From: an uncultured Acidobacteriota bacterium
Lineage (GTDB): Bacteria; Acidobacteriota; Vicinamibacteria; Vicinamibacterales; 2-12-FULL-66-21
DNA length: 64,000 nucleotides
NCBI GenBank assembly: GCA_963730995.1
Contig: CAVSUB010000005.1
Location: forward strand, 67,408-131,407
Direction of reading: 5' to 3'
The notes beneath the pieces were generated by a model. It searched no databases and had not been told where the DNA came from. It was given only the letters and a program-made list of their open reading frames with translations. Positions within the stretch are counted from its first letter, which is position 1. Each line of letters begins with the position of its first letter. Of the stretch, positions 18,162-37,822 are shown piece by piece. Made by a program: the position numbers and the translations under genes.

Positions 18162-18242
18162 CTGAATCAGTAGCAGACGCTCCGTTGTCGCGACTGCGGA
18201 ATCAAGGCCGAACCAGAGGACGACACGCCACTGAATCAGTAG
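18162..18242. promoter_or_regulatory. Pair of CTGAATCAGTAG boxes, candidate operators
   Basis: Exact 12-bp direct repeat at 18162 and 18231 with a palindromic CTGA-A-TCAG core, in a divergent intergenic region. Confidence 0.4.
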
Positions 18243-18272
18243 ATACAGGCCACTAGGATTCCCGACGTGACG

Positions 18273-19007
18273 ATGCGATCGAAGCAGCTGGGAGGAAGCC
18301 GGGTATGGACCGCCGGGAGCGGCCCGACCGTGGTGGTGGTCCACGGCGGCCCGGGCTTCAATCACAAGTACCTGACCCGGTCACTCCTTCCACTTTCGCC
18401 ACACTTCCGCCTCGTGTTCTACGATCAACGCTCACGCGGAGCGATCTCTCCTGCGGCTTTGACCGAACAGCTCAGGAGGATCCTCGTTGCCGCAGCCGGT
18501 GATGGCCCACCCGTGGTCCTCGCGCATTCGTGGGGCACGTATCTCGCCTTCGCGTGCCTGACACTGCCGGACTCGCCGGCAGTGCGCGGGGCCGTACTGG
18601 TGTCGCCGGTGCCTCTGACCCTGAACGGATTCAATCGGGCCGGCGCGCGGTTCAAGAGATCGCTCCCCAGCCCGGCGCCGACGGGGATCAAGGAGCTGTT
18701 TCCGTACTACCTCGCGAAGAGCAATCGCGGGAAGGAGTCCATCCCGGTTCCACAGTTCAGCGCCGCTGCCTATGGAACGGTGCTCGCCGGTCTGCAGCGA
18801 TCGTCGTACGACTTCCGGAAGGCGTCACGGTTCCTGCCGGAGGGAACGCACCTGGTGTTCGGGCGACAAGACCGCCTCTCGAAGCCGTCGGACTTCAAAG
18901 GAATATCCCGAAGGGTCTCGCTCACCACCGTTTCGGGTGCCGCTCACTTCGCGTTCGCGGAGCAGCCGGAGGTCTTCCGGGGCCTGTTCCGCGAGGAGTT
19001 CGGCTAA
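18273..19007 (+). CDS. Alpha/beta hydrolase, proline iminopeptidase-like (S33)
   Basis: HGGPG, FYDQR, AHSWG nucleophile elbow, GRQD, AAHF. Confidence 0.8.
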   Translation: MRSKQLGGSRVWTAGSGPTVVVVHGGPGFNHKYLTRSLLPLSPHFRLVFYDQRSRGAISPAALTEQLRRILVAAAGDGPPVVLAHSWGTYLAFACLTLPDSPAVRGAVLVSPVPLTLNGFNRAGARFKRSLPSPAPTGIKELFPYYLAKSNRGKESIPVPQFSAAAYGTVLAGLQRSSYDFRKASRFLPEGTHLVFGRQDRLSKPSDFKGISRRVSLTTVSGAAHFAFAEQPEVFRGLFREEFG

Positions 19008-19037
19008 TCCCGAAAGTCAAAGCCATGAAAAACCCAC

Positions 19038-19124
19038 ACAGGAGGATGGGAGGAGGGAGGAACTCCTTTTCTCAAAAAACATGCGGAAACCAAAGAAAGA
19101 TCCTCCTTCCTCCCATCCTCTTGT
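19038..19124. repeat. 24-bp purine-rich inverted repeat between convergent genes
   Basis: ACAGGAGGATGGGAGGAGGGAGGA versus TCCTCCTTCCTCCCATCCTCTTGT, 2 mismatches (both G-U compatible). Confidence 0.7.
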
Positions 19125-19166
19125 AAAGGTTTTCCTGTCAGTGAACGCCGGCGCTGAAGACACGCC

Positions 19167-22100
19167 TCACAGACCATCCAGGTATCGCCGGGCGTCCTGA
19201 GGTACTGCGGTAAATCGCAGCACGAACGAGCGATCCACCGGCGGGCGGCGCAGCACTTTTCCGTAGATTCCGGCGATGGGTCCCCCCTCGGTGGGCTTCA
19301 GCAGCAGCTTCAGATCGGTGAGGGGGGGCGGCGGCGTCAGGCTCTGGATCTCGGCCTCGTTCGTCGAGAGCCTGACGATCATCCCGTCCTGCTGCTCCCG
19401 CGCGACGTCCTTTCCTCTCACCCACTGAAACGACACGGGCAGCGCGGGCTCGACGTCGGTCCATTTGACCTCGCGCCGCGGGAGCTCGAGGCCGTGCACA
19501 CCGCCCAACCCGCCGATCTCGTACAGCGTTATGGGGTGTGTCACGCCTTTGGGCTCGACGGTCTGGTCGCCAAGGATCGTGAGCGGCGCCTTGACGGCGT
19601 CGCGAGTGGCGCCGGCGATGAGGATCTGACCGCCGATGGTGTACCCCTCGATCCGGCCCGCGAGGTTGACGTTGCTTCCCACCACTCCGTACTTCGCTCG
19701 TTTGCGCGAGCCGATATTGCCCACGACGACTTCCCCGGTGTTGATGCCGATACCCATCTCGAGCTCGGGCAGGCCGTTCTCCACATTCCACGCATTGACC
19801 CTGGGCATGGCCAGCTGCATCTCGAGCGCGCATGCGACTGCCCGCTCCGCGTCGTCAGGCCGCTGGAACGGCGCACCGAAGATCGTCAGAATCGCGTCGC
19901 CGATGAATTCGTCGATCGTTCCGTTATATTTCTGGATGATCGTCGTCATCTCGCTGAGGTAGTTGTTCAGCAGGGTGACGATGGTCTCGGGAGGAAGCGA
20001 GTCGGAGAACGCGGCAAAGCCGCGCAGATCCGACATCATGATCGTGACGGTCTTCTTCTGGCCGCTGAAATCCAGATCTTCCACGGACTTGAGGAGGTTG
20101 TCGGCGATCTCGCTCGTCAGGTAGCGGCCGAAGGTCTGCTCGATGAACCGGTTGCGGACCTCGAGCTGCTCCGTCCGCGCCCGCACCTTGTCCTCGAGGT
20201 GCTCGACGATTTCGGCGTTCTTGATCGACACGGCGATCTGTCCCGACAGGAGCTCCAGAAGCTCCGTGCGTTCGGGCGTGAACGCCGCGCTCGCCAGATC
20301 GTTCTCGAGATACACGAGGCCGATCAGCTGGCCCTGGTTCAGAATCGGCTGGCAGAGGATGGACCGCGTCTCCTTCTTCTGCACGTAAGGGTCCGCCATG
20401 AACCGTCGATCCTGTTGCGCGTCGTCGACAACGACGACCTGTTTCGTCCGCGCGGCGAAATGAACGACGCCGAGGGGTGCGAGGCCGGCGCCGTCCGGTG
20501 AGTCGATCGGAATCGACATGAGGACTGCGACGTCGTCGGATACGACGCTGCCCTCGGCCTCGACGAACAGCTCACCATCACGCGAGAGGAGAAGGACACC
20601 GCGCTGGGCCCCCGCGTTCTCGATCAGGATGCCGAGCAGGCGCTCGAGCAGGCGTCCGAGCACGACTTCGCCGGAGATGGTCTGCCCGGCCTTGATCAGC
20701 GTGGTGAGGTCGAGACTTGACACCCCGGATCGCGTCGTCGTCGTTGGCCGAGCGGGCGCGATCCTCGTCGTCGCTGTGCCGGAGGCTGCGCCGCGCGCGT
20801 CGCGGTACTCGGTGAGCAGCTGAGGAAACTCGACCTCGAGCTCTTCGATCTTTCGATTCGCCCCCCACAGCTGATAGCCGTAGCGGGCATCGCGCAGATA
20901 CATCGCGCCGACCCGCGACTTCGGACGACGCTCCATGACGAACCGCGCGGCGAGCTCGTTGGCGACCGCCTCGTCCTGCACGAAGCGGCTCTCGTGCGCC
21001 GCGTCGATCGCCTTGTCGTACAGGTCTGCCGCAGCCGTTTCGTCCCCGCTGATGCGGGCTATCTCGGCCTCGACCATCAGCCGCTTCGAGAGGTAGTTGT
21101 CGGGGCAACTGTCGGACCAAACCGTCAGCTGCGCGAGGTTCGCTCTGAGCTGCTCCATGGCCGCCACGCGATCCTCGTCGCTGCTTCCTTCCCAGAGCGC
21201 TGCCAGGGACAGCGACTGGTAGAGCAGGCGGTCCGCGAGATTCGGGTGATTGACGATGAAGCTCAGCATGCCCTCGATTTCACGAGTGGCGTCGAGAGCC
21301 TCCGCGGGACGGCCGAACAGGTACAGGGCCTGCGCCTTGAGGATCTTGTAGAAGCAGATCGCCATCGCGATCTGATGCTTCTCGCAGGACTGGAGAAAGG
21401 TGGCCTCGTCCACTCCGCCGCCGGCGAAGTCGAAGCTCGATTTCGTCCGTCCAGCCAGCGTAGACAGGACGATCTGGTGCGCCAGGATCCCGGCGCCGGC
21501 GCCAGGGTTCTGCGTGCGCGACGTGAACCCGAGCTGATCGGGCAAGCCGTCGAGCAGGTCGTCAAGGCGTCTGCCCGCGAAGGCATCCAGGACGACCCGG
21601 TACATGACCAGGTAGCCGGCCCAAAGGATGTCGCCCGAGTTGAGGCCCTCCTGGTAGCCCCTGTCGATGACCGGAATCGCGTGGCGGACGTGTCGGACCC
21701 ACGGCATCAGCTCGGAGCCGAGCACGAGACAGACTGTCGCCGTGGGCGCGCGGCCCTGGAACCTGTCGCAGAGGCGCAGCGCGAGCTCGCCGAACTCGTG
21801 GCCCTCTTTGTATCTCCCCATGAACGCGCCGATGATGAGGCCGTAGTTCGCGAACGAGAGGGCTGATTCCGGCGCGTTGCCGTGCTCGATCGAAATCCGG
21901 ACCGACGTGCCGACGATGAGCGGGAACAACTCCTGGTTGGAGAGGAACGCGGCGATGGTGAGATGGCGCAGGCAGCGCTGCGCCAGCGCCATCTCCGCGC
22001 TGTCGACGTCGGGATTATTGAAGAGCGACGCGGTGTCACGGCCGGCGAGCATGGCTCCCACCGTGCCCATGGCTTGCTGACCGGCCTGCTGCACGTTGGT

Positions 22101-24689
22101 CAGCGGCAGTTCGACACCCACCAGGGCCAGCGCCTGGCGGCCCGCATGGAGCGCCTCTTTGAACTGCGTGAGCAGGGTGTGCTGCGCGATCCGCGTGAAG
22201 TAGACCTCCGCCTTCTCGAGATCGGTTCGAGCCTGGTCCAGTGTGATGGCAACGATCTCGCTGCAGCGATCGAAATTGCCGTTCAGGTACTCGAGCTCGG
22301 CGCGCTGGCGGAACGCCTCGATCGTGAGCTCGTAGCTCTTTTGCCACCCGTCGTCACGAAGAAGGCCCTGAGCGATGCGGACGTACGAGAGGGCGGCGGC
22401 GTACGCCGACGCCTCGGATGCTTTGCGGGCGGCGTCGACATTGAGCTTCGCCAGGCCGGTTCGTTCGTCCTTGTCGGTGATCAGCTCGCGCCCGAAGTTG
22501 AGATGGTCGACGACTTCGAAGGTCCGCTCCTTGAGCGCATCAGCCGGCAACGTGGCCTGCAGGCGCCGGCCGATGGTCAGATGGACGTCACGCTGCCGGT
22601 CTTCCTCGATGAGGCCGTAAGCCGCCTGCTGCACGCGGTCGTGCTGAAACCCGAACTCCTGCACGACGAGCGGTGAGAGCACGTCCGCGGTGTCGGTGGC
22701 CGCGAGCTCGGACAGCGGACGGATCAGCTCCTCTTCTACGGCCGGTCGCAAACTCTCGAACGTCTCATGCGGCGTCGATTTCTGGATCAGGGCGAGCGTG
22801 TCGATGTCGAATCGATTGCCGATGCAGGCGGCGAGTTGCAGCGCCTCCTGCGTCGCGGGAGCGAGCCGTCTCAATTTGCCGAGCAGAAGGTCCACGACGT
22901 TGTCGGTGATCCGCGTGGACTTGATGGCCTGGATGTCCCACGTCCACCGCGAACGTTCTCCTGCCGCGGGAGGCGCCTCCTTGATGAGGCCCTCGTGATG
23001 CAGCGCCAGCAGGAACTGACGCACGAAGAGCGGATTTCCCTGGGTTTTCTGGACCACCAAACGAGCCAGCGCGGTCAACTGGGCAGCGTCGGCCTGGAGC
23101 GTATCGGCGAGGAGCCTGGCGACGTCGGCCAGGCCAAGAGGCGCGAGCGTCAGCGTCGTCACGGCGCCGCCGCCATCGCGGATGCCACGCAGCGTCAGCG
23201 ACAGGGGATGCATCGCGTTCACTTCGTTGTCGCGATACGCCCCGATGAGGAAAAGGCGGCTGATCCCGTCGTCGGTGAGAACGACGCGAAGCAGAGCGAG
23301 CGTGGCGGAGTCGGCCCACTGCAGATCGTCGAGAAAGAGGACGATGACCCTCTCGCGCGCGCAGAGGGCGCGCAGGAGCTGCCCGATGGCGCGGTTGAAG
23401 CGGTTCGTGGCTTCCGCCGCGCCGAGCTCCGGAACGGAGGGCTGCGGACCGACGATCAACTCGAGATCCGGCAGCACGTCGAGGATCACCCGCGCGTTCG
23501 GCTCCAGCGCCTCGATGAGATCCCGCCGCCAGACGGCGAGCCGCGCCTCGCTTTCCGTCAGGAGCTGGCGGACCAGGTCACGAACCGCCGCCACGAGACC
23601 CGAGTACGGGACGTTGCGCTGCAGCTGGTCGAACTTCCCGCTGATGAAGTAGCCCCGCGCCTTCGTGATCGGCTTGTGGACCTCGTGGATCAATGCCGAC
23701 TTGCCGACGCCGGAGTAACCAGCGACCAGGAGCATCTCCGCAGGGCCTCGGCGCGTGCGCTCGAAGGCCTCGAGCAGCCGCTCGACTTCGTTGTCGCGCC
23801 CATAGAGCCGTTCCGGGATCTGGAACCGTTCGCAGTGATCGTTCCGGCCCGGCTCGAACCGCTCGAGCCCGGCGGAGCTGCGCACTGTTTCCAGATCGGC
23901 CACCAGGCCTGCCGCGCTCTGGTAGCGGCCCTCGGCCTTCTTGGCCATCAGCTTGGAGATGACCTTGGAGAGCGCCAGCGAGACGTCCGGATTCCGCCGA
24001 TGCGCCGGGACGGGTTCGCGCGCGATCTGGGAGTGAACGAGCTCGATCTCGTCGTCTGCGTCGAACGGACGGCTCCCCGTGACCATCTGGTAGAACGCCG
24101 CGCCGAGTGAGTAGAAGTCCGTTCGATAATCGAGCGAGCGATTCATCCGGCCAGTCTGCTCGGGTGACATGTAGGCCAGAGTCCCTTCGAGCACGTCGGG
24201 GCTCTTCAGCACCGGCTGCTCCGTGGAGAAGCGCGTCGCGATGCCGAAGTCGATGATCTTGACCTCGCCGGTCGCGGGATTGATGACCAGGTTCGCCGGA
24301 CAGATGTCCTTGTGGATGATGTGAGCGCGGTGCACCTGCCCGAGCGCCACCGCCACCTGGATTGCGGTGTCGAAGAACTCGTCGAGTGACAGCGACCGGT
24401 CTTTCAGCAGGCTCGCAATCGACATCCCTCCGAAGTCCTCGAAGACCATCAGCAGCGTCTTCTCGTGGCGGCGGAGCTCGTAGCAGTGGATGATCCCCGG
24501 CAGGTCGAGGCTCTGGGTGATCTCGAACTCCCGCCGGTACCGCGCGAGCTCGCCGGTCGTCGGAAAGTCGTTCTTGAGGACCTTGATCACGACGGGAAGC
24601 CCGTCGCTGTCGCGGACACCCCGCAGTACCAGGGAATTCTTGCTCTCGTAGAGCCGCTCTCTGACCTGGAAGCCTTGAATGAAGGACAT
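19167..24689 (-). CDS. Ser/Thr kinase - AAA ATPase - helical repeats - GAF - class III nucleotide cyclase (HstK-like)
   Basis: HKDICPAN/DFG/YMSPEQTG; GYSGVGKS; LDDLQWAD; GAF (SILCQPI..YLEN); MSDLRGF, IDEFIGDA, KYGVVGSNVNLAGR. Confidence 0.92.
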   Translation of the reverse strand: MSFIQGFQVRERLYESKNSLVLRGVRDSDGLPVVIKVLKNDFPTTGELARYRREFEITQSLDLPGIIHCYELRRHEKTLLMVFEDFGGMSIASLLKDRSLSLDEFFDTAIQVAVALGQVHRAHIIHKDICPANLVINPATGEVKIIDFGIATRFSTEQPVLKSPDVLEGTLAYMSPEQTGRMNRSLDYRTDFYSLGAAFYQMVTGSRPFDADDEIELVHSQIAREPVPAHRRNPDVSLALSKVISKLMAKKAEGRYQSAAGLVADLETVRSSAGLERFEPGRNDHCERFQIPERLYGRDNEVERLLEAFERTRRGPAEMLLVAGYSGVGKSALIHEVHKPITKARGYFISGKFDQLQRNVPYSGLVAAVRDLVRQLLTESEARLAVWRRDLIEALEPNARVILDVLPDLELIVGPQPSVPELGAAEATNRFNRAIGQLLRALCARERVIVLFLDDLQWADSATLALLRVVLTDDGISRLFLIGAYRDNEVNAMHPLSLTLRGIRDGGGAVTTLTLAPLGLADVARLLADTLQADAAQLTALARLVVQKTQGNPLFVRQFLLALHHEGLIKEAPPAAGERSRWTWDIQAIKSTRITDNVVDLLLGKLRRLAPATQEALQLAACIGNRFDIDTLALIQKSTPHETFESLRPAVEEELIRPLSELAATDTADVLSPLVVQEFGFQHDRVQQAAYGLIEEDRQRDVHLTIGRRLQATLPADALKERTFEVVDHLNFGRELITDKDERTGLAKLNVDAARKASEASAYAAALSYVRIAQGLLRDDGWQKSYELTIEAFRQRAELEYLNGNFDRCSEIVAITLDQARTDLEKAEVYFTRIAQHTLLTQFKEALHAGRQALALVGVELPLTNVQQAGQQAMGTVGAMLAGRDTASLFNNPDVDSAEMALAQRCLRHLTIAAFLSNQELFPLIVGTSVRISIEHGNAPESALSFANYGLIIGAFMGRYKEGHEFGELALRLCDRFQGRAPTATVCLVLGSELMPWVRHVRHAIPVIDRGYQEGLNSGDILWAGYLVMYRVVLDAFAGRRLDDLLDGLPDQLGFTSRTQNPGAGAGILAHQIVLSTLAGRTKSSFDFAGGGVDEATFLQSCEKHQIAMAICFYKILKAQALYLFGRPAEALDATREIEGMLSFIVNHPNLADRLLYQSLSLAALWEGSSDEDRVAAMEQLRANLAQLTVWSDSCPDNYLSKRLMVEAEIARISGDETAAADLYDKAIDAAHESRFVQDEAVANELAARFVMERRPKSRVGAMYLRDARYGYQLWGANRKIEELEVEFPQLLTEYRDARGAASGTATTRIAPARPTTTTRSGVSSLDLTTLIKAGQTISGEVVLGRLLERLLGILIENAGAQRGVLLLSRDGELFVEAEGSVVSDDVAVLMSIPIDSPDGAGLAPLGVVHFAARTKQVVVVDDAQQDRRFMADPYVQKKETRSILCQPILNQGQLIGLVYLENDLASAAFTPERTELLELLSGQIAVSIKNAEIVEHLEDKVRARTEQLEVRNRFIEQTFGRYLTSEIADNLLKSVEDLDFSGQKKTVTIMMSDLRGFAAFSDSLPPETIVTLLNNYLSEMTTIIQKYNGTIDEFIGDAILTIFGAPFQRPDDAERAVACALEMQLAMPRVNAWNVENGLPELEMGIGINTGEVVVGNIGSRKRAKYGVVGSNVNLAGRIEGYTIGGQILIAGATRDAVKAPLTILGDQTVEPKGVTHPITLYEIGGLGGVHGLELPRREVKWTDVEPALPVSFQWVRGKDVAREQQDGMIVRLSTNEAEIQSLTPPPPLTDLKLLLKPTEGGPIAGIYGKVLRRPPVDRSFVLRFTAVPQDARRYLDGL

Positions 24690-24699
24690 TTTCTATTCC

Positions 24700-24780
24700 G
24701 GGGGGCTTCGCCCCGCCGGACCCCCCAGCGCCGGCGCTCGCGGGGGCCCCATGCCCCGCTTACGCGCGCCGTCGCGCCGC
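24700..24780. repeat. GC-rich palindromic intergenic repeat (GGGGGCTTCGCCCCGCCGGACCCCC type)
   Basis: Short hairpins GGGG-CTTCG-CCCC and AGCGCCGGCGCT between the halogenase and kinase genes. Confidence 0.45.
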
Positions 24781-26061
24781 CCGTCGTCGAGGCGTGTCGT
24801 AGTAACCGATTCCGTGGCCTACCTGGGCAAAATTGAGCTCCGAGAAATTGCCGAAGGGCCGGTAGATGCTCAGAAGCGGATAGACCTCCCTGTCCCAGGT
24901 CTCCTGATCCTTGCAGCCTGAGAGCGCGAGGGCTGGCAGCGTCCGCCCCGCTTCCACGAATTCCCCCATTTCTTCGAGATGGTCCCGGGCGATGTCGCTC
25001 TCGCTGGCGCGTTCCATGCCCTGCCGGGCGTACCGCCAGAATGCCGTGTCCCACAGGGAGCCACACGCATAGTGCCAGGCAACGAACAGCGAATTGCGGC
25101 AGACGAACCCTACCATACCCTCGTTGAAAGCCTCGAGTTCGTCGAGATCCGTGCTGCTTTCGGGACCGTGCTCCGCGATCCAGTGCGCCGCCGAGCGGAT
25201 TTCAACGATGGCGGTGGCGATTCCGGTTGCTTCGAGCGGCTCCAGGAACGAGGCCGAGTTCCCCACCCAGAAGATCCGGCCGTCGAAGAACCTGCGGCGG
25301 AGAAAGTTCGGGAAATTCAGCATTCCCCGGTGCGTCCAGCCTGTGACGCCCTCCTCCTTCAGACTCAACGTGAAGTCGGCCTCCACTTCGGCGTCGGAAC
25401 TGATACTGGGATTGAAGATGTAGCCGGTGGACGTCGCATCCTGCAGGGGGATGTGGAAGATCCAGCCGTGCGGACGCGCCGCCGCGCGAGTCACTCCCGA
25501 CAGAGCACCCGGCGGCAGCCAGCGAAGGTTCGCCCGGCTTGTGGGGATCCAATCCAGCTGGATCAGATCGCCCGGTGCTTCGGCCGCGGGCCGTGGGAAT
25601 CCTCGCGCGTCGAACACGTAGTCGCAGAGATGCGTCGTCTTGTCGCCGAGCGTCACGAGGACGCCATGGGGCAGCGTTCGCAATTCCTCCACACGCGCGT
25701 CGATGTGCTGCGCACGAACGTGCTCGGCGATCACGCGGACCACCTTCGTGGCGTCGAAGTGGTAGCCGATCAGCCGTACGGGCTGGAACCGGTTCACGAA
25801 CTCGGATCCGTTGGCGCCCCAGCCGTCGAAGCGGGTGCCGTTCTTCAACGTGGCGCCGCAATGCTCGGCGAGATCGCTGAAGCCGAGGCCGGTGACCTCC
25901 TCCAGCCAGACCGGGAATCGCGGGGTCGTACCCTCGCCCACGCCGATGGTCGGGATGCTCGAGTCGAACACGTGCAGGAGCTCTGCCTCCGGCAGACTCC
26001 GCGTCACGTGCGCGGCCGCAATGAATCCGGCAGTGCCACCGCCGACGACTGCGATCCTCAT
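24760..26061 (-). CDS. Tryptophan-halogenase-family flavoprotein
   Basis: GGGTAG, IGVGEGT, ATLKNG (catalytic Lys position), DARG, GWIFHIP, FLEPLEATG. Confidence 0.85.
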   Translation of the reverse strand: MRIAVVGGGTAGFIAAAHVTRSLPEAELLHVFDSSIPTIGVGEGTTPRFPVWLEEVTGLGFSDLAEHCGATLKNGTRFDGWGANGSEFVNRFQPVRLIGYHFDATKVVRVIAEHVRAQHIDARVEELRTLPHGVLVTLGDKTTHLCDYVFDARGFPRPAAEAPGDLIQLDWIPTSRANLRWLPPGALSGVTRAAARPHGWIFHIPLQDATSTGYIFNPSISSDAEVEADFTLSLKEEGVTGWTHRGMLNFPNFLRRRFFDGRIFWVGNSASFLEPLEATGIATAIVEIRSAAHWIAEHGPESSTDLDELEAFNEGMVGFVCRNSLFVAWHYACGSLWDTAFWRYARQGMERASESDIARDHLEEMGEFVEAGRTLPALALSGCKDQETWDREVYPLLSIYRPFGNFSELNFAQVGHGIGYYDTPRRRAARRRA

Positions 26062-27359
26062 TGTGCGCAGAGATCCGTCAGGGTTTCGATCGGTCGAAGG
26101 AGATGCTGCACCGCCAGAAGGGCATGAGCGATTTCGGAGCTCTTCGGAGCAGCCTCGCAGAACCGGGCGAGACAGTCATCGTTGTGCGCGGCAGGATTCC
26201 CGTCAGCGTCGCAGCCGGTCGCAAGCCGCCACGGCTGAACGTGGAATGCCGCGAGGTGCTTCTGGAATTCCCCTCCGGCGACGTGCAGGCTGACTTCGCG
26301 ATCGAGGAACTCGCGGAGGAGAACCACGCCGCGGGCGGCCACCGTCATGCCCAGCCCGAAATACGGATCGAGCGCGCATGCCGAATCACCGAGAGCGACG
26401 AGCCCCGCCGGCCAGTCAGGGGCGCGATCGTAGTGCCTCAATCGATTGCCGGCGATCCCGTAGTGCTGGATTGGCCCGAGAGGCTTTGCCCGCTCGAGCG
26501 CTGCTCGTAGCCTGCCCCCGCCGAGGCCATCGGTGAACTCCAGAAAGGCCTTGTCGTCTGCAGGAAGCGGGTCTCCGGCAGGAGCCAGGAGCACGACGCC
26601 CCAGCAATCGTGCTCGGCGCGCAGCATCATGGCGGCGCGAGCGTGACTGCCCGCCGGCGCGACTGAAAGGCAGTGCCAGTCGGGTGCGTCGTATGGCGCC
26701 AGCTCGAACCAGCGCGACACGTACTGCGTTCCGGAATCGACGACAGTCTCGTCCACCGGCGATGCCGCCCTGTCGGGCACCGTGCCGAGCCACTCCGGGA
26801 GTCTCGAGCCACGGCCGCTCGCGTCCACGACGAGATCGGCTGCGACGGACGTCTCTCCGGAACCGTCGACTCCGGTCGTTCGGACGCCGGCCACCCGTCG
26901 TCCGGTTCCGAGCAACGCGACGACCTGCTGGCCCTCCAGCACCTGCACGTTCGCCTGCGCCTCGAGAGCACGCCGCAGGACGCGCTCGAGCAAAGACCTG
27001 GAACAGGCGTACGTGATGATGCCGGACGGCGTCCGCGGCAGCCAGCCAGCGGGGAACTGCATTACCGCGTCCGCGGATGCGTCGATGGGAACCGCGCCGA
27101 GCCCGACAAGGGCTTCTCTCCAGCCGGGCACGACTTCGTCGAAAGCTGCGGCTCCTCCCGCCATCAGCAGATGGAGGCACCGGCTCTGCGGCGCGCCTCG
27201 GCGCGAAGCAGGTGCGGGCGAGGCTGGATCAGCGGGATACGGGTAACGCTCGAGAACGGTCACGCGCTCGAATCGAGCCGCGAGCATGCGTGCGGCCAGC
27301 AGCCCGCCGATTCCCCCGCCGATGACGATTCCCTGCCCGGTCATGGTCGTAGAGTGCAC
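26058..27359 (-). CDS. FAD-dependent oxidoreductase/monooxygenase
   Basis: GGGIGG..VLER, PQSR.LH, DASGRGS, GDSACALDPYFGLGMT; ATGA overlap with the halogenase; alternative start 27344. Confidence 0.85.
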   Translation of the reverse strand: MHSTTMTGQGIVIGGGIGGLLAARMLAARFERVTVLERYPYPADPASPAPASRRGAPQSRCLHLLMAGGAAAFDEVVPGWREALVGLGAVPIDASADAVMQFPAGWLPRTPSGIITYACSRSLLERVLRRALEAQANVQVLEGQQVVALLGTGRRVAGVRTTGVDGSGETSVAADLVVDASGRGSRLPEWLGTVPDRAASPVDETVVDSGTQYVSRWFELAPYDAPDWHCLSVAPAGSHARAAMMLRAEHDCWGVVLLAPAGDPLPADDKAFLEFTDGLGGGRLRAALERAKPLGPIQHYGIAGNRLRHYDRAPDWPAGLVALGDSACALDPYFGLGMTVAARGVVLLREFLDREVSLHVAGGEFQKHLAAFHVQPWRLATGCDADGNPAAHNDDCLARFCEAAPKSSEIAHALLAVQHLLRPIETLTDLCAQ

Positions 27360-27370
27360 GGTGCCGCGAG

Positions 27371-28006
27371 TCAGCCCTTGTGGCCGCGAGGAACCCTGAG
27401 ATCCTTCGGGATCTCGTACGAAATGCGCGTGAATGTCTGCGCTATGACGAATCGGACCGTCCCCGTCGGAAAGTACGCGGGAGGATCGCCGCCTCGTCGT
27501 GACGAAGAGAACTGTCGCCGCGCGGCGGCCGTCGCGGGCGCGGCCATGACATAGGGCCCGATGATGTGCCGTTCGTTCGGGCCCACGAAATACTGGTTGT
27601 TGTAGTAGTCGGCGTAGTAACGACCGTTCTTGTCTTTCGTCCTGAGGTGGAACAGATAGATGCCCGGTCGTGTCTCCACGCCGTCGATGAGCGTCCCCGA
27701 GTGTTCGTCCTCGCCGCCGCAGGACTTGCCGGTGACCTTGAGGTCGACGGTCAGCTGCGAGAAGTTGCGCACGGCCGCGACGTCGGCCGTGTTATAGCCG
27801 GAATCGTCGAGCAGGTTCTCAACGCTGTCCTCCTGGTCCTGCTGGAAGTGGAGGAGCTTGTTCGGTACGTGCCAGTAGATGGCGACACGGCTCTGAATCG
27901 AATCCTGGTAGACGCCCTTGGCATCGTAGACCGTGGCGATCCCGGCCCAGTATCCGACCATCAGATCGTACGGAACGGCGTCGTTGAAGCTCTTTTGCAT
28001 GGTCAT
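27371..28006 (-). CDS. Hypothetical beta-rich protein in the RiPP operon
   Basis: ATG 28006 with GGAGAG RBS; aromatic-rich alternating pattern; N-terminal GYW.G (lipocalin-like GxW). Confidence 0.7.
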   Translation of the reverse strand: MTMQKSFNDAVPYDLMVGYWAGIATVYDAKGVYQDSIQSRVAIYWHVPNKLLHFQQDQEDSVENLLDDSGYNTADVAAVRNFSQLTVDLKVTGKSCGGEDEHSGTLIDGVETRPGIYLFHLRTKDKNGRYYADYYNNQYFVGPNERHIIGPYVMAAPATAAARRQFSSSRRGGDPPAYFPTGTVRFVIAQTFTRISYEIPKDLRVPRGHKG

Positions 28007-28076
28007 GGACTCTCCACCTTGCTGCGCTGCCGGAGGGCGGCCCTCCCGGACGCGCCCTGCATCCACACATTCGGAT

Positions 28077-30356
28077 CTAGAACTGGACCACGAACGGGTT
28101 CAACTCGCCCTCCTGGACGGCTCGAGGGAGCCAGCCTTGCTGTACGGGGACGTCATAGAGACGGCCCGGTCCGAAGCGGGCCCAGAAGTGGCGAAGGCCC
28201 GGCGCGACCACCCGCACGACGGGGAGCCCGACGTCGGGTCGGGTCTGATTGAGGACGAGAATCTCGATGCCTCGGGCCGTTGCAATCCTCTGACACAGGA
28301 GGATGTCTTTCTGGAGATCGTCTGAAGCGACCTGCTCGAAGTCCTGCAGCCGCCTCGGAGTCGCCTCGGGGTCGGGCGCCAGGTAACCGGCGTCCGCAAT
28401 CCTGACGGTGCGCCACCAACGAAGGGCGTCGGGGCCTCCTCTATAACTGCGCGTCGATTCCGGCCCGTTCGCAGCCGGCACCGCCTCCAGCGACTGATTC
28501 ACCTCGGTCAGCGCTCTTGTCAACGCGACGGCGGGATCGAGATGCGATCCGAAGCCATAGATGACATCCTCTTCGGGCGCGTCCACCCGTCTGGATATCG
28601 CCGCGAAGGTTGGCACTCCGATGTCGCTCGTGACGTCGAGCGCCCAGAGGTCGCGGGCCAGCTCGCCGTAGTGACGGACGAGTCCGGAAATGTAGGGATC
28701 GTCCGCGCTCTCGAGATCCACTGCGGGTCGTCTCAACCGGTTGTACCACCAGATGGCGACGGCATCGCGCTCCACCAGCTCGAGAAATCCCTGCAGAACG
28801 GCTTCCTCGAGGACCGAACCCGCGGCGCACCCGTTGGAGTCGGCACGTGCAAAGAGCGGATCCGCGCTGCGATAACCGAAGTAGCAGTACGACGTTGGCA
28901 GGTAGCGGGTTTGCTCGGCCGAGAGGGACCACAGCGGCGTCCACTCGATCTCCACGTCCTCTCGAAACGGCTCCGGCACCCAGTGGGCCTTGTGGTCCCG
29001 CCGATTGTGGGAGTCGCGCTCCGCATACTGCCGGTCGCTGTATCTCAGACAGGCGTTCGGGTGAATCGCTGCGTCCCCGAGGTCCGCGAACGAAGCGCGG
29101 ACACGCGGTTCGGTTCCGTCGAAGACGCCGCAATACCGCTCCAACGATTCAGCCAACGCGCTCGCGCGGGCCTGTTCCGGACTCTTCCCTTTCCCTCCCG
29201 AACGCCGCCGCATGCCTTCCCGGAGGAAAAAGCGATCGTCGTGCATGTCCGAAAAGTTGTGATCGGCCGCGAACGTCGGTGTGAGCGACGGCCGGCCGTC
29301 AATCGAACCTCCGCTCCGTTCTCCGGGTACCAGCGCGCTCACAATGCCCGTGATCGGACTGACGTGACGATCGAGCTGCTCGAGCACCTCACGAGGCTGC
29401 TGAGCGCGGTGACCGCCGTCAGATGCGTGGATCTTGGGTCGCGGCTGAAAGCGCACCGGCCGCGGAATCAGGAGCTCGTTCGACTCGGAGCCGCCGCAGG
29501 ACGGGCACTGCGGACGACGAGTGAGGATGTGCCGATGACGTTCGAGCGTGAGGACGTTCGTCGACAGCACACGATCGAGGAGCGCCGATTGCCCTCCTGA
29601 ACCGATCCAGCGCGTGATCTGGGTGGCCGCTTCGGCGAGGGATGCGTGCCCGGTTGAGGCGATCGATCCGGCGGGCGGGGCTATCGGAAGACTTGTGCCC
29701 GTACGCAGCGCCAGATACTGCTCGAGTTTCCGGTGCCCGCGGAGCCGTTGAGCGAGACACTCCCAGCAGCCGGTCCGGCCGGGCACGAAGAGCGGCCCGA
29801 TCCAGGTCTCCATCCCCATCGGCTTCACCAGAAGCCAGGGCTTTCCCGACGCCAGCGATCGCACGTTCCACGCCGCAAGTGCCGGGCGGAGGTAATCGTC
29901 CGTCACCGCGACAGCAACATCACCGTCGAGCCCCACTGAAATCCCGTTCTCGCCGAGCGTCGCCGTGAGAGATTCGATCTCGACGTCGCCGAACGGCATC
30001 GCCGAAACGCGCGCGCGGGCGAGGCGCGACCGCGCCACGGCGGGAGCCACACCGGCGTTTTCCCAGAATGTCGCCGTGGAAGGCCTGCCGCCGCCGGCGC
30101 CCTCAGCGAGGTACCCGGTCGTCTTCAGATGGTCGAGGGCCGCGAAAACCTGCTCTGCAGGATAGACCTCGCAGAGTCCGTCGAAGATCGCTTCGACGTC
30201 GTGCGCGCCGTCGAGCATGGGCGCGAGAGCAGCGTAGATCGGATCCGGCATCCACGCCTGCCGGCCTTCCCCGATCAGAAAGAGCCCATCATCGGAGTCG
30301 ATGATGGGTCGCACGCCGCACTTGAACCGGGGACGAGCCGACGCCTCCTCGTCCAT
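28077..30356 (-). CDS. Fused RRE/ocin-ThiF-YcaO cyclodehydratase (TOMM/cyanobactin PatD-like)
   Basis: TDDYL, GPLFVPGRTGCWECL, RPQCPSC, SPITGIV, AESLERY, DSNGCAAG, ELVERDA, RFGPGRLYDVP. Confidence 0.95.
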   Translation of the reverse strand: MDEEASARPRFKCGVRPIIDSDDGLFLIGEGRQAWMPDPIYAALAPMLDGAHDVEAIFDGLCEVYPAEQVFAALDHLKTTGYLAEGAGGGRPSTATFWENAGVAPAVARSRLARARVSAMPFGDVEIESLTATLGENGISVGLDGDVAVAVTDDYLRPALAAWNVRSLASGKPWLLVKPMGMETWIGPLFVPGRTGCWECLAQRLRGHRKLEQYLALRTGTSLPIAPPAGSIASTGHASLAEAATQITRWIGSGGQSALLDRVLSTNVLTLERHRHILTRRPQCPSCGGSESNELLIPRPVRFQPRPKIHASDGGHRAQQPREVLEQLDRHVSPITGIVSALVPGERSGGSIDGRPSLTPTFAADHNFSDMHDDRFFLREGMRRRSGGKGKSPEQARASALAESLERYCGVFDGTEPRVRASFADLGDAAIHPNACLRYSDRQYAERDSHNRRDHKAHWVPEPFREDVEIEWTPLWSLSAEQTRYLPTSYCYFGYRSADPLFARADSNGCAAGSVLEEAVLQGFLELVERDAVAIWWYNRLRRPAVDLESADDPYISGLVRHYGELARDLWALDVTSDIGVPTFAAISRRVDAPEEDVIYGFGSHLDPAVALTRALTEVNQSLEAVPAANGPESTRSYRGGPDALRWWRTVRIADAGYLAPDPEATPRRLQDFEQVASDDLQKDILLCQRIATARGIEILVLNQTRPDVGLPVVRVVAPGLRHFWARFGPGRLYDVPVQQGWLPRAVQEGELNPFVVQF

Positions 30357-30382
30357 GTGAAGCACTCGAGGCGAAGCTCGTC

Positions 30383-30610
30383 TCAGCAGCAGGCGGGAGG
30401 CGTCGTCGCGACAGGAGACTTATGGAGCGAGCCGGCATCGCCCTTTGGTCGAGGGGCGATCCTCACTACCTTATCGAAGGTCTTGCCGGCTTCCTTGGCG
30501 TACTTCTTCACGGCCTTGGTCGGATCAGTTTCCAGGAGCTTGCGGAATTCCGGGTCACGCCATGCCTTCGCATGGATCTGGCCCCAATCCTTCTTGGTTG
30601 GTGCGCCCAT
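30383..30610 (-). CDS. NHLP-leader-like RiPP precursor peptide (75 aa, C-terminus PPACC)
   Basis: AKAWRDPEFRKLLETDP..A leader motif; AAGGAGA RBS; immediately upstream of the YcaO gene. Confidence 0.9.
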   Translation of the reverse strand: MGAPTKKDWGQIHAKAWRDPEFRKLLETDPTKAVKKYAKEAGKTFDKVVRIAPRPKGDAGSLHKSPVATTPPACC

Positions 30611-30676
30611 CGATCTGTCTCCTTTTGAAAGGGGGAGTCGATTACGCGGTGCAGTGCCGCGGCCCGACTGAGCCGT

Positions 30677-30706
30677 AACGTATGCTTTGCTGCCTCGCTC
30701 TGTCAA
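30677..30706 (-). promoter_or_regulatory. Sigma70-like promoter for the precursor operon
   Basis: TTGACA (30706-30701), 18-bp spacer, TACGTT (30682-30677). Confidence 0.5.
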
Positions 30707-30771
30707 GAAACATAATCCGCCGGTACTGGGTCAGGTTGCCTGCGCGCCCGGGTCAGGAGGGACGGAGAGAG

Positions 30772-31030
30772 CGGAGTTCACAACGGAGGAACGGAGAGAA
30801 CGAAGGCGAAACGGAGAAGACGCAGCGGCGTGACCGCGCGAAGCGCGGTCGAGTGACGAGGGGCGCGACGGGCGCAAGTGGGTGGGGGGCGTGGGCCACT
30901 TGTGCCCGTCGCGACCCCTCGCCACTCGGACGCCGGCCGCGGCCGGCGTCACGCCCCACCCGGCCGAGTCGAACCACATCCTCTTCTCCGTTCGTCCCCC
31001 GTTGGCTCCGTTCCTCCGTTGTGAACTCCG
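30772..31030. repeat. MITE/REP-like structured element with perfect 25-bp terminal inverted repeats
   Basis: CGGAGTTCACAACGGAGGAACGGAG at 30772-30796 and its reverse complement at 31006-31030; internal hairpin 30851-30928. Confidence 0.75.
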
Positions 31031-31092
31031 TTGTCTTCGCAACCTCCTGCTCGCGTCCGCCCCAGCTTCTCGGCAGTCGATCTGATGACCCA

Positions 31093-32403
31093 CTACCAAT
31101 CCGCCCGCGCGTGCACACGAAAGCGTCCTGACTCTTCGCGCGCTGGGATCAACCGGAACCGGCGAGCCACCAGAAGGCTGATTACGGTCATTTGCAGCAT
31201 CGCCAGGCGGGCGCCGATGCAGGCGCGAGGGCCGGCGCCGAACGGGAGGTACACCGACCGGAGTGTGGCACCGGAGCCTCCTTTCATGAAACGCTCGGGA
31301 AGGAACCGATGCGGTTCCGGAAAGTGGCGCGGGTCGAGATGAAGGAGCTGCGGGCTCACCCACACGGCGGCATCGCGGGCGAACTCGAACCCACCCAGCT
31401 CGAAGGCGCTGTCCACCTCCCGGTAGAGGATGGGAGCGGGTGGATGCAGACGCATGCTCTCCTTCAACGCGGCAAGGCAGTACGATTCCAGGAGATCGGA
31501 CGAACCGGGGACTCCGCCCGCACAGAGCCGATCGGCCTCGGCGGCAATGGCCGCACCGAGATCGTTGCCGGCGATGTCGCTCCAGAGGTGCAGGAGGCTG
31601 AAGGGAACCGTCAGATGTCCGGCGTAGAGCATCTGTATGACTTCTCCCACGATTTCGTCGCGCGTGAGCCCTCCGCCGTCGGGAAACCCCGCCTGAACGA
31701 GGTCCGAGAGGACGTCTCCGCGTCCTTCACGGCTCGCGATGCGCTCGTCGATGATGCGTATCGCCGTCTCCATCCGCCGCGGAGCACGAGGCCGTACCAT
31801 GACCAGTGGCCCGCTCGGATCGCCTCCCGGAGCGCTGGCGTAGTCTTCGCCGTACAATTCGTCGAACGGAACGATGCCGGAGCGGCGTTCGCTCGGACCG
31901 TACCCCTCGAGTTCCGCGTCCAGCACGACACGGGCGGCGATTCTGGCCGTGAGAATGCGCAGTTCCCTCGCCAGATCGATGACCTTGTCGGGCGCCGGCT
32001 CGCACTCCCAGGAATCGAGCATGGCCTCAGCACATTCGGCCACGACCGGCAGGCGATCCGACACGGGTCGCGGACGGAAGGATGGACGCAGTGCCTGCCT
32101 GTGCGCCTGCCAGGCGGATCCCTCGAGCGTCGTGAGGCCGTCGCCCCAGTGGCCGCGATTGGAGTCCTTGACGAACTCCGGTTTGCGGAGACAGGCTTCA
32201 CGCTCGAACAACAGCTCGCGAACCTGGGATGCGCCGTTAACGAGGATGCTGGGCGAGCGTCCGAGATCGAACGCAACGACATCTCCGTACCGATCCGCGA
32301 GCGCCCTCAGGAATCCGAACATGTCCGTCTGCCAGGCCTCGTAGTTGACGATGCCCGAATGCTCACCCCGTGGGCCCGGCGGACGTGTCGGCATCAGGCT
32401 CAT
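31093..32403 (-). CDS. Cytochrome P450
   Basis: YAGHLT I-helix, ESMR (ExxR), FLPERF, PFGAGPRACIG heme Cys. Confidence 0.95.
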   Translation of the reverse strand: MSLMPTRPPGPRGEHSGIVNYEAWQTDMFGFLRALADRYGDVVAFDLGRSPSILVNGASQVRELLFEREACLRKPEFVKDSNRGHWGDGLTTLEGSAWQAHRQALRPSFRPRPVSDRLPVVAECAEAMLDSWECEPAPDKVIDLARELRILTARIAARVVLDAELEGYGPSERRSGIVPFDELYGEDYASAPGGDPSGPLVMVRPRAPRRMETAIRIIDERIASREGRGDVLSDLVQAGFPDGGGLTRDEIVGEVIQMLYAGHLTVPFSLLHLWSDIAGNDLGAAIAAEADRLCAGGVPGSSDLLESYCLAALKESMRLHPPAPILYREVDSAFELGGFEFARDAAVWVSPQLLHLDPRHFPEPHRFLPERFMKGGSGATLRSVYLPFGAGPRACIGARLAMLQMTVISLLVARRFRLIPAREESGRFRVHARADW

Positions 32404-32420
32404 CCCTTCGATATCCTCGC

Positions 32421-33758
32421 ATGACCTCTGATTCGGTTCACTGGACGTACGCGCTCGCGGCCGACGTGCGCGTCGAACCGGGCGACGGGGGTATCTTCCT
32501 TCGCACTCCCACTGACGAGATCTGGATGGAAGGCGCGGTCGAAATCGGAGCGCTCGAACTGCTCGCGAGCGTTGACAGCAGCGAGGCCCAGCTCCACGCC
32601 CGACTTCGGAGTGGTCCCGACGCCGACGATGCGGAGACGCGCTGCGCGGCGCTGCTCTTTCAACTCGATCGGCTGGGACTCCTCTCGCGAACCATCAATA
32701 GCAAGGAACGCCGGCTGGTGTCGTGTGTGCCGCTGCGGCCTCCACCAGGCCCGCCTCCGGAGCGCCCACCCGACGGGCCGCTCCGACTCTCGCATCGTGC
32801 GCTCGCTCGAGTCGAAGCCCACGTCCTGGTCCTCGAGCTCCCGGGCGCCTGGGCGCGAATCGCGATTCATGACCGCGACCTGTTTCCGCTCCTGCACGAT
32901 TTGGCAGTTGGCCGTTCGGCGTCCCAGGTGGCAGTGGCCGGTCATTCCGGGCAGGCCATTCTGGCGGTCCTTGCGCTCATGGATTGGTGTGGGCTCTTCG
33001 GCGAACCGGAAGCCGACGGATGGTCCGGCCACGATCTGCTCTTTCACGCCCGCACTCGGAGAGGGTACGCACGCGTAGCGCTCGGAAAAACCGGGTTTGG
33101 GGCGCCGGCGCCGGATGCCATCGCGATCGAAGGCCGGGACCATGTCGCACTCGAGCCGCCGGATCTCGCGCGACTCCTCCTCGAGGATCCGCCGTACGCG
33201 CTGGTTTCCGAGCGGCGGCAATCCCTCAGGCGGCAGGGATCGATTCCGATTACGTCGAACCAGCTCTCGGAGTTTCTGTTTCGGACGCTTCACGAGCAGG
33301 GCGGCAGGCGTCCTTACCCGAGCGGGGGCGCCTGCTATCCGTTGAAGGCATACGTCGGCATCCACCAGTGCAGCGGCGTTGCGCCGGGCCTCTACGCGTA
33401 CGCACCGACCCGCCACGAGCTTGTCAGGTTGAGCGAACCAGGGCCTCGGCTCGACAGCCTGCTTTCGGACGCGGCGGCGGCGGCCAACGTCGAGCGGCCT
33501 CCACAGATTCTGATCGTGCTCGCCGCGCGCTTCACTCGCACGCAACGGGTCTACGGAGATCTCAGCTACAGCCTGATCCTCAAAGAGGTCGGCGCGGTGT
33601 TTCAAGCGGCGATGATGGCGGCGGCGGCGATGAGGCTGGCGGCCTGTCCGCTGGGTTGTGGAGACTCGCTTCAGTTCTCCGAGCTCGCCGGCGTGGACCC
33701 GCTGACCGAAACGTCGGTGGGAGAGATGATGGTGGGATCCATCGACGACAACGTTTGA
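32421..33758 (+). CDS. SagB/ThcOx-family azoline dehydrogenase with N-terminal RRE-like region
   Basis: HDLLFHAR.R.G, RRQSLR, RPYPSGGACYPL, YSLILKEVG.VFQ. Confidence 0.88.
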   Translation: MTSDSVHWTYALAADVRVEPGDGGIFLRTPTDEIWMEGAVEIGALELLASVDSSEAQLHARLRSGPDADDAETRCAALLFQLDRLGLLSRTINSKERRLVSCVPLRPPPGPPPERPPDGPLRLSHRALARVEAHVLVLELPGAWARIAIHDRDLFPLLHDLAVGRSASQVAVAGHSGQAILAVLALMDWCGLFGEPEADGWSGHDLLFHARTRRGYARVALGKTGFGAPAPDAIAIEGRDHVALEPPDLARLLLEDPPYALVSERRQSLRRQGSIPITSNQLSEFLFRTLHEQGGRRPYPSGGACYPLKAYVGIHQCSGVAPGLYAYAPTRHELVRLSEPGPRLDSLLSDAAAAANVERPPQILIVLAARFTRTQRVYGDLSYSLILKEVGAVFQAAMMAAAAMRLAACPLGCGDSLQFSELAGVDPLTETSVGEMMVGSIDDNV

Positions 33759-33773
33759 CTGCCAGTCACATCA

Positions 33774-33840
33774 GTTGGTGTAGCGCGGGGTCTTCAGACC
33801 CCGCGCCGGCGGGGCTTGAAAGCCCCGCCCTACAACCAAC
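33774..33840. repeat. GTAG-type REP doublet (REPIN)
   Basis: GTAGCGCGGGGTCTTCAGACCCCGCG ... CGGGGCTTGAAAGCCCCGCCCTAC. Confidence 0.75.
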
Positions 33841-37821: not shown

Positions 37822-37822
37822 G

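Follow-up and report, generated by a model that had tools for sequence, protein, structure and literature searches.

A conserved RiPP-type gene set with a fixed Cys-Cys core and an adjacent STAND kinase/cyclase gene in Acidobacteriota and other phyla

The stretch of DNA under study (the window; 64,000 nucleotides of contig CAVSUB010000005.1 from an uncultured Acidobacteriota bacterium) contains a set of adjacent genes that resembles the pathways for peptides that are made on ribosomes and modified post-translationally (RiPPs). On the minus strand these genes form a run which, in the order of transcription, starts with a cytochrome P450 gene (31093–32403; PF00067, E 2e-47), followed by the gene for a precursor peptide of 75 amino acids with a nitrile-hydratase-alpha-like helical leader and the end TTPPACC (30383–30610). 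Next comes the gene for a protein of 762 amino acids in which a leader-binding part of the E1-like/RiPP recognition element (RRE) kind is fused to a YcaO domain (28077–30365; TIGR03882 and TIGR03604 above cutoff). It is followed by the genes for a barrel protein of 231 amino acids, which belongs to no curated family and was modelled as a DUF3598/calycin-like beta-barrel (27371–28066), for a group-A flavin monooxygenase of polyether-epoxidase-like type (26058–27359; FAD-binding Pfam families) and for a flavin-dependent halogenase-like enzyme of 433 amino acids (24760–26061; PF04820, E 5e-45). The last gene of the run encodes a protein of 1840 amino acids with kinase, AAA_16, GAF and cyclase domains and a weak TPR match in Pfam (19167–24689). 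Divergent from the P450 gene, and thus on the plus strand, lies a gene for a SagB/ThcOx-type FMN dehydrogenase, an azoline oxidase (32370–33758; TIGR03605). According to the list of open reading frames (ORFs), gaps of 17 nt separate precursor and YcaO, 10 nt YcaO and barrel protein, and 11 nt barrel protein and flavin monooxygenase; a 4-nt overlap joins the stop of the latter to the start of the halogenase gene, and 70 nt lie between the halogenase and kinase-cyclase genes. Every gene named in a preliminary description of this region was recovered at its reported position in the ORF list and in Pfam and NCBIfam scans.

The YcaO protein scored 274.2 bits against TIGR03604 (cutoff 219.25) and 151.9 bits against TIGR03882 (cutoff 36.9), and it matched PF02624 with E 4e-102. 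Its full-length matches were LynD (E 6.9e-188), TruD (E 1.7e-178) and MusD. Judged from these alignments, the protein is of the cyanobactin-heterocyclase (LynD/TruD) type over its whole length, which bears out the fused heterocyclase called earlier. The SagB protein scored 128.8 bits against TIGR03605 (cutoff 78.4) and carries the Pfam Nitroreductase and ThcOx domains. Its orthologs align only from residue 16–25 onward, and the true start is probably the ATG near 32421. The window therewith holds the features by which azol(in)e RiPP loci are recognised, namely a fused E1-like/RRE-YcaO protein, an adjacent precursor ending in cysteine, and SagB.

For the precursor, the ORF finder placed the start at a TTG (30706); an ATG at 30610 sits 8 nt behind the sequence AAGGAG and is the likely start, giving the 75 residues that end in TTPPACC. 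Searching a large protein collection yielded 45 homologs, which are conserved along the whole length and not in the core only. PPACC forms the C-terminal end in 43 of the 46 aligned proteins, the window precursor included, and the three exceptions have truncated or unrelated ends. No curated model in Pfam or NCBIfam captures either the precursor or the barrel protein. When the 46 sequences were combined into a profile, this matched nitrile hydratase alpha (E 4.9e-7) and 8TB1, the solved structure of a nitrile hydratase-like leader peptide (NHLP; E 0.0044). An AlphaFold2 model showed an N-terminal three-helix part followed by a less-ordered C-terminal part, and in a fold search with this model nitrile hydratase alpha ranked first, at a non-significant E of ~2. 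A three-helix leader with a poorly ordered C-terminal part is the architecture of proteusin leaders, as outlined in PMC10858898. Between the P450 gene and the precursor we observed an element of 291 bp (30755–31045) with inverted-repeat arms of 58 nt that are 83% complementary. It has 113 matches in its own genome, about 8 of them near full length at 81–93% identity, and because of these many copies we call it a repeat like miniature inverted-repeat transposable elements (MITE-like). The spacer between P450 gene and precursor measures only ~80–160 nt in orthologous loci, and the element looks like an insertion just upstream of the precursor promoter region; related soil sequences differ within it.

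A scan for the precursor pattern, with one genome per species, identified 21 loci, which were compared with the window proteins by tblastn. The loci belong to Acidobacteriota, Gemmatimonadaceae, Burkholderiales/Betaproteobacteria, six Ruegeria, Granulosicoccus, Xanthobacteraceae and other Alphaproteobacteria, a metagenome-assembled genome (MAG) of Myxococcaceae, and a cyanobacterium. Gene order was identical across the 21 loci. The preliminary description had proposed a RiPP-type set with co-conserved tailoring genes, and on this point, on which it had staked its refutation, it stands. YcaO was present in 20 of 21 loci, the contig of the remaining one ending before YcaO, and the epoxidase-like and halogenase-like flavoenzymes were each present in 18 of the 18 loci that cover them. 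The barrel protein was found in 17 of 18 covering loci. SagB and the P450 had also been counted in the set, which is correct for the window and for most other loci (SagB in 17/21, P450 in 20/21). When all ORFs of the 21 loci and of the window were clustered all against all, nothing was shared beyond the core genes and their shadow ORFs. The cyanobacterial locus has only the precursor, YcaO, the barrel protein and the two flavoenzymes, and these constitute the minimal conserved set. The arrangement recurs far beyond chance. Among the genes co-conserved in the 21 loci there was no exporter, transporter, protease, immunity gene, lanthipeptide dehydratase or radical SAM gene; the lack of an exporter and a protease, previously remarked for the window, is therefore a property of the loci in general. 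Some MAGs showed apparent breaks or losses, which may reflect decay or errors of assembly: YcaO is divided between two frames in L003 (8902–11188; identical with G006:C1, a genome of the same genus as the window), the barrel gene is missing in the Ruegeria MAG L013 (12516–12867), and a SAM-cyclase gene lies in two pieces in L020 (4919–8336).

The precursors of these loci end in Cys-Cys in 20 of 20 intact cases, the 21st (L021) being truncated. The end is PPACC in 15 of the 20, and PFPPWCC, PFPPSCC, PFPPTCC, QFPPWCC or YPVACC in the others, with a Trp at position −3 only in L015 and L022. The tiny core that had been predicted is thus confirmed in its two cysteines, which are fixed, whereas the (Pro-Pro-)Ala part varies (FPPWCC, FPPSCC, FPPTCC, YPVACC). 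The two residues preceding Pro-Pro also vary (TT, TA, VA, RS, QV and others), and for this reason we rejected the idea that the kinase phosphorylates a core Thr in the style of class III/IV lanthipeptide synthetases. YcaO, SagB and an NHLP-like precursor are classic parts of thiazole/oxazole-modified microcin (TOMM) clusters, and the locus could be read as an ordinary thiazole/oxazole bacteriocin cluster with incidental neighbours. Yet the two-cysteine core is fixed in every intact precursor instead of being variable, the neighbours are kept in order across phyla, and a transporter or immunity gene is not among them, which makes such a cluster highly improbable. Rather, a cofactor or signal is favoured over a bacteriocin by the invariant core, by the conservation of the leader and by the lack of an exporter, immunity gene or protease.

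The occurrence of the gene set among relatives of the source organism is patchy. An orthologous YcaO was found in 2 of 40 relatives, that is, in 1 of 3 from the same genus, 1 of 21 from the same family and 0 of 16 from the same order, and one further genome encodes a 43%-identical YcaO of another kind. The match in the same-genus genome has the coordinates of L003, which is labelled as a MAG of Acidobacteriota, and an acidobacterial origin of the window is accordingly most likely. The flanks of the loci differ even between Ruegeria species. In L015, a phage-integrase-family gene (16375–17751) lies directly 3′ of the halogenase gene, where others carry the kinase-cyclase gene. The patchy occurrence, the presence in several phyla, the differing flanks and the integrase gene in L015 together point to a spread of the whole module by horizontal transfer. 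When the region 24000–34000 was divided into 30 bins, soil metatranscriptome contigs of at least 95% identity covered 29 bins in libraries X1/X2 (possibly a single data set under two entries) and 25 bins in X17. Such libraries may contain DNA and are no proof of transcription; the matches are a hint at the presence of near-identical sequence in soils. Both ends of the biosynthetic block are marked by GC-rich intergenic hairpins (24697–24750 and 33782–33830), at which the soil runs show depth spikes. Apparent joints that skip 24723–33807, and that might have represented strains without the genes, were taken for repeat artefacts, given sides of 20 letters, the GC-rich hairpins and the depth spikes.

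The large protein encoded at the end of the run is composed, in this order, of a Ser/Thr kinase, an AAA_16 NTPase, a conserved region of ~850 amino acids, a GAF domain and a class III cyclase, and we refer to it as a STAND (signal transduction ATPases with numerous domains) kinase-cyclase. The ~850-residue region gave a weak, sub-threshold TPR match in Pfam and is presumed to be the sensor region. The kinase motifs VVIK, HKD..N, DFG and SPE are intact. The cyclase domain is closest to that of Cya2 (2W01; E 2.9e-62) and has kept the metal Asp pair, the Asn/Arg pair and the FGRY transducer motif. It has also conserved the base-specifying Glu, as seen in the alignment to 2W01, from which the window protein is predicted to make cyclic GMP (cGMP). 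In Cya2 itself, the E488K change turns the guanylate cyclase into an adenylate cyclase, as stated in a passage of PMC5995499.

In 16 of the 18 informative loci the biosynthetic genes have a STAND-cyclase gene as a neighbour, which occurs in two non-orthologous architectures. Twelve loci have the kinase-AAA16-GAF-cyclase type, together with PPACC cores. Four others (L015, L018, L020 and L021) encode, upstream of the P450 or SagB gene, a SAM-cyclase-AAA_16 protein of ~1150 amino acids, and these proteins are 69–72% identical to each other; in the three of these loci with an intact precursor, the core is FPP[W/S/T]CC. The two STAND-cyclase architectures hence track two core subtypes. By Pfam, neither the 1840-residue protein nor three of the ~1150-residue SAM-cyclase-AAA_16 proteins contains a LuxR/HTH or other DNA-binding domain. 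The orthologs of the kinase-cyclase are 63–83% identical over ~1500 residues, with full lengths of 1846–1932 amino acids where seen, and their gene lies directly 3′ of the halogenase gene in 12 genome loci and in the metagenome contig L037 (72% identity). Trees of YcaO and of the kinase-cyclase (12 rows each; quick IQ-TREE with SH-aLRT only) had their well-supported clades in common, namely Ruegeria, the two Betaproteobacteria, and Granulosicoccus apart. The sole difference was the place of the window within the Acidobacteriota/Betaproteobacteria group, at open or weakly supported forks. The median end branch was 0.10 for the kinase-cyclase and 0.26 for YcaO, showing that the kinase-cyclase evolves more slowly. 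The earlier suggestion of a signal rather than a bacteriocin is favoured by this link to a cyclase, which is real and conserved.

In a metagenome scan with the first 560 residues of the kinase-cyclase as query, at least 578 relatives were detected, the best 80 of which were examined. Of these 80, 79 were paralogs with 36–54% identity, and the sole ortholog (L037) again follows the halogenase gene. Three of the 79 paralogs adjoin another fused YcaO, 42–45% identical to that of the window (L042, 2016–13208; L078, 6458–14479; L087, 3213–16162). SagB is also present in two of these three loci, a protein of 246 amino acids ending in GCSC precedes the YcaO in L042, and L087 has Dyp-peroxidase-like and dioxygenase-like genes. 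The link between YcaO clusters and the kinase-AAA16-TPR-GAF family may accordingly be wider than the window's own family. Co-folding of residues 490–1340 of the kinase-cyclase with the precursor gave a score of 0.00, which speaks neither for nor against binding.

Of the tailoring enzymes, the P450 has the haem loop FGAGPRACIG, a sub-threshold match to the RiPP P450 ApyO (E 5.7e-33; 114 bits against a cutoff of 525) and a best PDB match to 7wzl (E 1e-33). The epoxidase-like flavoenzyme matched Lsd18/LasC (E 1.4e-54) and MonCI (E 4.7e-48) in the PDB. For the barrel protein, which lacks Pfam and NCBIfam matches and probably starts at Met21 (28006), an AlphaFold2 model with a mean pLDDT of 80.9 was used in a Foldseek search. 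The best match was 2o62, a DUF3598 protein (E 2.5e-5, TM 0.47), followed by BFA1 and the bilin lyase CpeS, and a match of language-model features to DUF3598_N clusters (0.94) agreed with the fold search. Across 16 orthologs 19 residues, many of them polar, are invariant. The family is rare, with 101 representative proteins at E≤1e-3, 37 of them at E≤1e-30, among 1.84 billion.

The halogenase-like enzyme aligned with the tryptophan halogenases in the PDB (E 4e-27) such that GATLKNG corresponds to GATIKLG and GWIFHIPLQ to GWQWQIPLQ, with FLEPLE conserved. All 18 of the 18 orthologs keep the Lys, W..F..IPL and EPLE unchanged, and we take the aligned Lys, WxWxIP and Glu to be the catalytic Lys, the motif and the catalytic Glu of PrnA/RebH. 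The second Trp of WxWxIP is a Phe in the halogenase-like enzyme (GWIFHIPL). Since its 433 amino acids fall short of the 497–554 amino acids of the tryptophan-halogenase matches, the enzyme probably has no counterpart of their substrate-binding C-terminal part. In NCBIfam it comes closest to QhpG, an enzyme that modifies a protein-bound residue, but its 35 bits stay below the cutoff of 240. This match is one of several points in favour of an alternative in which the 75-residue protein remains uncleaved and its C-terminal cysteines become an in-place prosthetic group, such as a metal-binding or redox-active bis-azole, that stays intracellular and is perhaps a partner of the STAND protein. Comparable cases would be two modified structures, the small subunit of quinohaemoprotein amine dehydrogenase and the Cys cluster of nitrile hydratase. 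In line with this alternative, the entire precursor is conserved whereas no protease or exporter is, and the part of nitrile hydratase alpha to which the leader is homologous lies just upstream of the metal-binding cysteines of that enzyme. However, conservation of the leader would also be expected if five or six enzymes each dock to it, and cyanobactin-type heterocyclases normally yield released peptides, so that an uncleaved protein appears rather improbable to us. That different enzymes bind different NHLP surfaces is reported in PMC12455567.

With moderate confidence, we favour the view that the locus encodes a RiPP-type pathway that is conserved, moves horizontally and has a very small, invariant core, and that is genetically and probably functionally coupled to a STAND kinase/cyclase. 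The observed basis of this view consists of the gene identities, the invariant Cys-Cys, the synteny across phyla, the co-inheritance with STAND-cyclase genes and the pairing of core subtypes with architectures. From there we infer the chemical steps, the release of the product and the role of the STAND protein, which could be a product sensor, a gene regulator or both. The precursor would fold as a nitrile-hydratase-like helical leader to which the enzymes dock. Going by what is established for LynD/TruD-type heterocyclases and SagB/ThcOx oxidases, YcaO would then cyclodehydrate the two C-terminal cysteines to thiazolines, and SagB, where it is present, would oxidise these to thiazoles. More weakly, it can be proposed that the barrel protein, the epoxidase-like and halogenase-like enzymes and usually the P450 modify the resulting Pro-x-x-azole-azole end, the azol(in)e rings, the prolines and the C-terminal carboxylate being candidate targets. 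The product could be a short released fragment or the modified peptide itself, and an oxidised, halogenated bis-thiazole, as put forward in the preliminary description, is conceivable; the interpretation given there is, as a whole, partly supported. Most likely, the product serves as a signal or cofactor with a functional tie to the STAND protein, either as its ligand or as the output of a pathway that it controls, with Ser/Thr phosphorylation and cyclic nucleotide synthesis as the outputs of the STAND protein. A narrower proposal, which we regard as possible but put forward tentatively, is that the RiPP pathway makes a dedicated ligand, or a protein-borne prosthetic group, of the STAND receptor. 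The bis-azol(in)e C-terminus, free or on the 75-residue protein, would be bound by the TPR or GAF part and would switch the Ser/Thr kinase and the guanylate/adenylate cyclase, and the PPACC and FPPxCC cores would be matched to the two receptor architectures.

Several observations weigh against a functionally coupled RiPP-type pathway, or limit it. Taken alone, the precursor scores below the cutoffs of TIGR03793 (16.6 vs 50.9 bits) and PF02979 (20 vs 27.2 bits). Flavin halogenases usually act on aromatic residues, of which the main-type core has none, and the conserved gene set includes neither a flavin reductase nor a redox partner for the P450. No SagB gene lies near 4 of the 21 loci, and no P450 gene near 1. 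In addition, the compared genomes are related within clades, and the 21 loci are not 21 independent events. With respect to the nucleotide, the base-specifying Glu is found in 5 of 8 proteins (the window protein and seven orthologs), whereas three Ruegeria proteins (L026, L027 and L013) have Ala in its place and Ser instead of its Gly partner. Therefore, cGMP is no general prediction, and the nucleotide produced may differ between lineages.

Other observations of this kind concern the coupling itself. Two of the 18 informative loci (L022 and L023) keep the biosynthetic genes without a cyclase gene nearby, and 76 of the 79 kinase paralogs have no YcaO, SagB or other cluster gene adjacent. The kinase family is large and mostly unlinked to such clusters, and it could therefore have been recruited as an ordinary regulator. 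Under this alternative, the kinase-cyclase is only a cluster-situated regulator in the manner of the LAL (large ATP-binding regulators of the LuxR family) and MalT types that activate antibiotic clusters, though its outputs are a kinase and a cyclase, and the azole peptide is an extracellular antibiotic, a metal ligand or an intercellular signal unrelated to the STAND sensor. LAL regulators are located in biosynthetic clusters, and the AAA_16 domain with its weak TPR match would suit such a role. A gene for a TonB-dependent-receptor-like outer-membrane protein with a CarboxypepD_reg domain (33913–36432), which adjoins SagB in the window, would also be in keeping with an extracellular product, but it is conserved in 0 of the 21 loci, and an exporter, immunity gene or protease is likewise not co-conserved. 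Moreover, no other gene of the set is as conserved as that of the kinase-cyclase, an unusual trait in a pathway regulator, and the two STAND-cyclase architectures follow the two core subtypes. We consequently deem a mere regulator unlikely and retain the coupled pathway as the preferred reading.

The closest described system is the srp proteusin family of sponge symbionts, and the biosynthetic logic of the window set is to that extent of a known kind. As presented in parts of PMC10858898, the srp precursor SrpE combines an NHLP leader with the five-residue core LCCCW, which has three contiguous Cys; the YcaO protein SrpC cyclodehydrates the core Cys, and the flavin-dependent brominase SrpI is guided by the leader. 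Both systems thus join a structured leader, NHLP-like in the window, to a very short core rich in Cys, a YcaO and an enzyme of flavin-halogenase type, the halogenases being compared by description only. In contrast to the srp halogenase, which according to the same parts of that paper acts on a C-terminal Trp, the enzyme in the window is paired with a core, TTPPACC, that has no Trp or other aromatic residue. Compared with the srp genes as described there, the window set adds the P450, the epoxidase-like flavoenzyme, the DUF3598-like barrel protein and the STAND kinase-cyclase, and its Cys-Cys is invariant. The earlier statement that this is not a described class consequently holds for the gene set, of which the full-text literature searched yielded no description, nor any of a precursor ending in PPACC; it does not hold for the combination of NHLP, Cys-rich core, YcaO and halogenase, which the srp proteusins already join. 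A term search of a 2015 TOMM survey (PMC4603692) gave no mention of a halogenase, P450, cyclase or kinase, and a preprint (10.64898/2026.08.03.742642) deals with non-ribosomal halogenase clusters that are not relevant here.

Cyanobactin pathways (LynD, TruD, MusD; ThcOx) share with the window the full-length YcaO similarity and a SagB protein with a ThcOx-type domain. They differ in that the conserved set described here has no PatA/PatG-type proteases, repeated core cassettes or N-to-C macrocyclisation machinery, and in that its leader is nitrile-hydratase-like. Proteusins are characterised by a Gly-Gly leader cleavage site, a PCAT (peptidase-containing ATP-binding transporter) exporter/protease, and a radical SAM epimerase or methyltransferases. 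In the window, by contrast, no Gly-Gly precedes the core TTPPACC, and the conserved set contains no peptidase, ABC transporter or radical SAM gene. In the pathways for pyrroloquinoline quinone (PQQ) and mycofactocin, an invariant core of a few residues sits at or near the C-terminus, the leader is conserved, the tailoring is oxidative, and a dedicated exporter is absent. The window family resembles them in this fixed-core pattern of a cofactor or signal, which is unlike that of a hypervariable bacteriocin. However, PQQ and mycofactocin rely on radical SAM enzymes and are linked to dehydrogenases, whereas the present family relies on YcaO and on flavin and P450 enzymes and is linked to a signalling protein. 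Among the STAND regulators that have AAA_16 and TPR parts are the LAL/MalT type and mycobacterial cyclase-AAA-TPR-LuxR proteins such as Rv0386. As in LAL/MalT regulators, AAA_16 is followed here by a long conserved, presumed sensor region and the gene lies beside biosynthetic genes; unlike them, the protein has no DNA-binding domain by Pfam, its outputs being a Ser/Thr kinase and a class III cyclase. The SAM-cyclase-AAA_16 architecture resembles the mycobacterial cyclase-AAA-TPR-LuxR type. Finally, Cya2 of Synechocystis is a membrane protein with CHASE2, whereas the cyclase domain in the window ends a cytosolic kinase-STAND-GAF protein.

Convergent to the run, on the plus strand, lies a gene for an alpha/beta-hydrolase (18267–19007; Abhydrolase_6, E 3e-17), which had been included in the system as a prolyl-aminopeptidase-like gene. 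It reached only 31.8 bits against the proline-iminopeptidase family (cutoff 167.65) and is not co-conserved. We rejected it as a leader peptidase or member of the system, given that 3′ of the kinase-cyclase gene nothing is common to five other genomes and the window. Because the 8 kb beyond this gene share nothing among those genomes or with the window, the system ends at SagB on one side and at the kinase-cyclase gene on the other, with the hydrolase as a bystander. The flanks of the window are rich in signalling genes, namely for a TPR-repeat Ser/Thr kinase, a response regulator carrying a SpoIIE phosphatase domain, and a hybrid histidine kinase that contains GAF and Hpt domains (15840–18365, 36676–38094 and 37823–41491); none of these is conserved with the cluster. 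A promoter and terminator scan of 18900–34000 was uninformative: the number of promoter-like sites was 0, and the 11 terminator-like sites compare with 8.2 ± 3.1 in shuffled sequence. PADLOC defence models matched only the kinase domain (PD-T4-6, mad6) and the cyclase domain (PycC), with no match for the barrel protein or the halogenase, and as these matches are at the domain level only, a known anti-phage defence system was rejected.

RiPP clusters are usually mined for antibiotics with variable cores, and the window family has the opposite signature, in which the core is fixed at two cysteines, the leader is conserved, and an exporter or protease is lacking. Its chemistry would involve a halogenase-like enzyme in the absence of an aromatic residue in the main-type core, and an epoxidase-like enzyme, a P450 and a barrel protein acting on Pro-x-x-Cys-Cys. 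In moving between phyla as distant as those of soil Acidobacteriota and marine Ruegeria, this pathway has kept a very large kinase/cyclase as its partner. Provided that the link is functional, it would represent a new route from peptide chemistry to cyclic-nucleotide and Ser/Thr signalling, and it would provide a function for one branch of the large, uncharacterised kinase-AAA16-TPR-GAF family. Should the product indeed be the ligand of the STAND protein, the genes would make up a self-contained, horizontally mobile module leading from a peptide-derived ligand to cyclic-nucleotide signalling. Since non-pathogenic Ruegeria available in culture carry the complete set, this question is directly testable.

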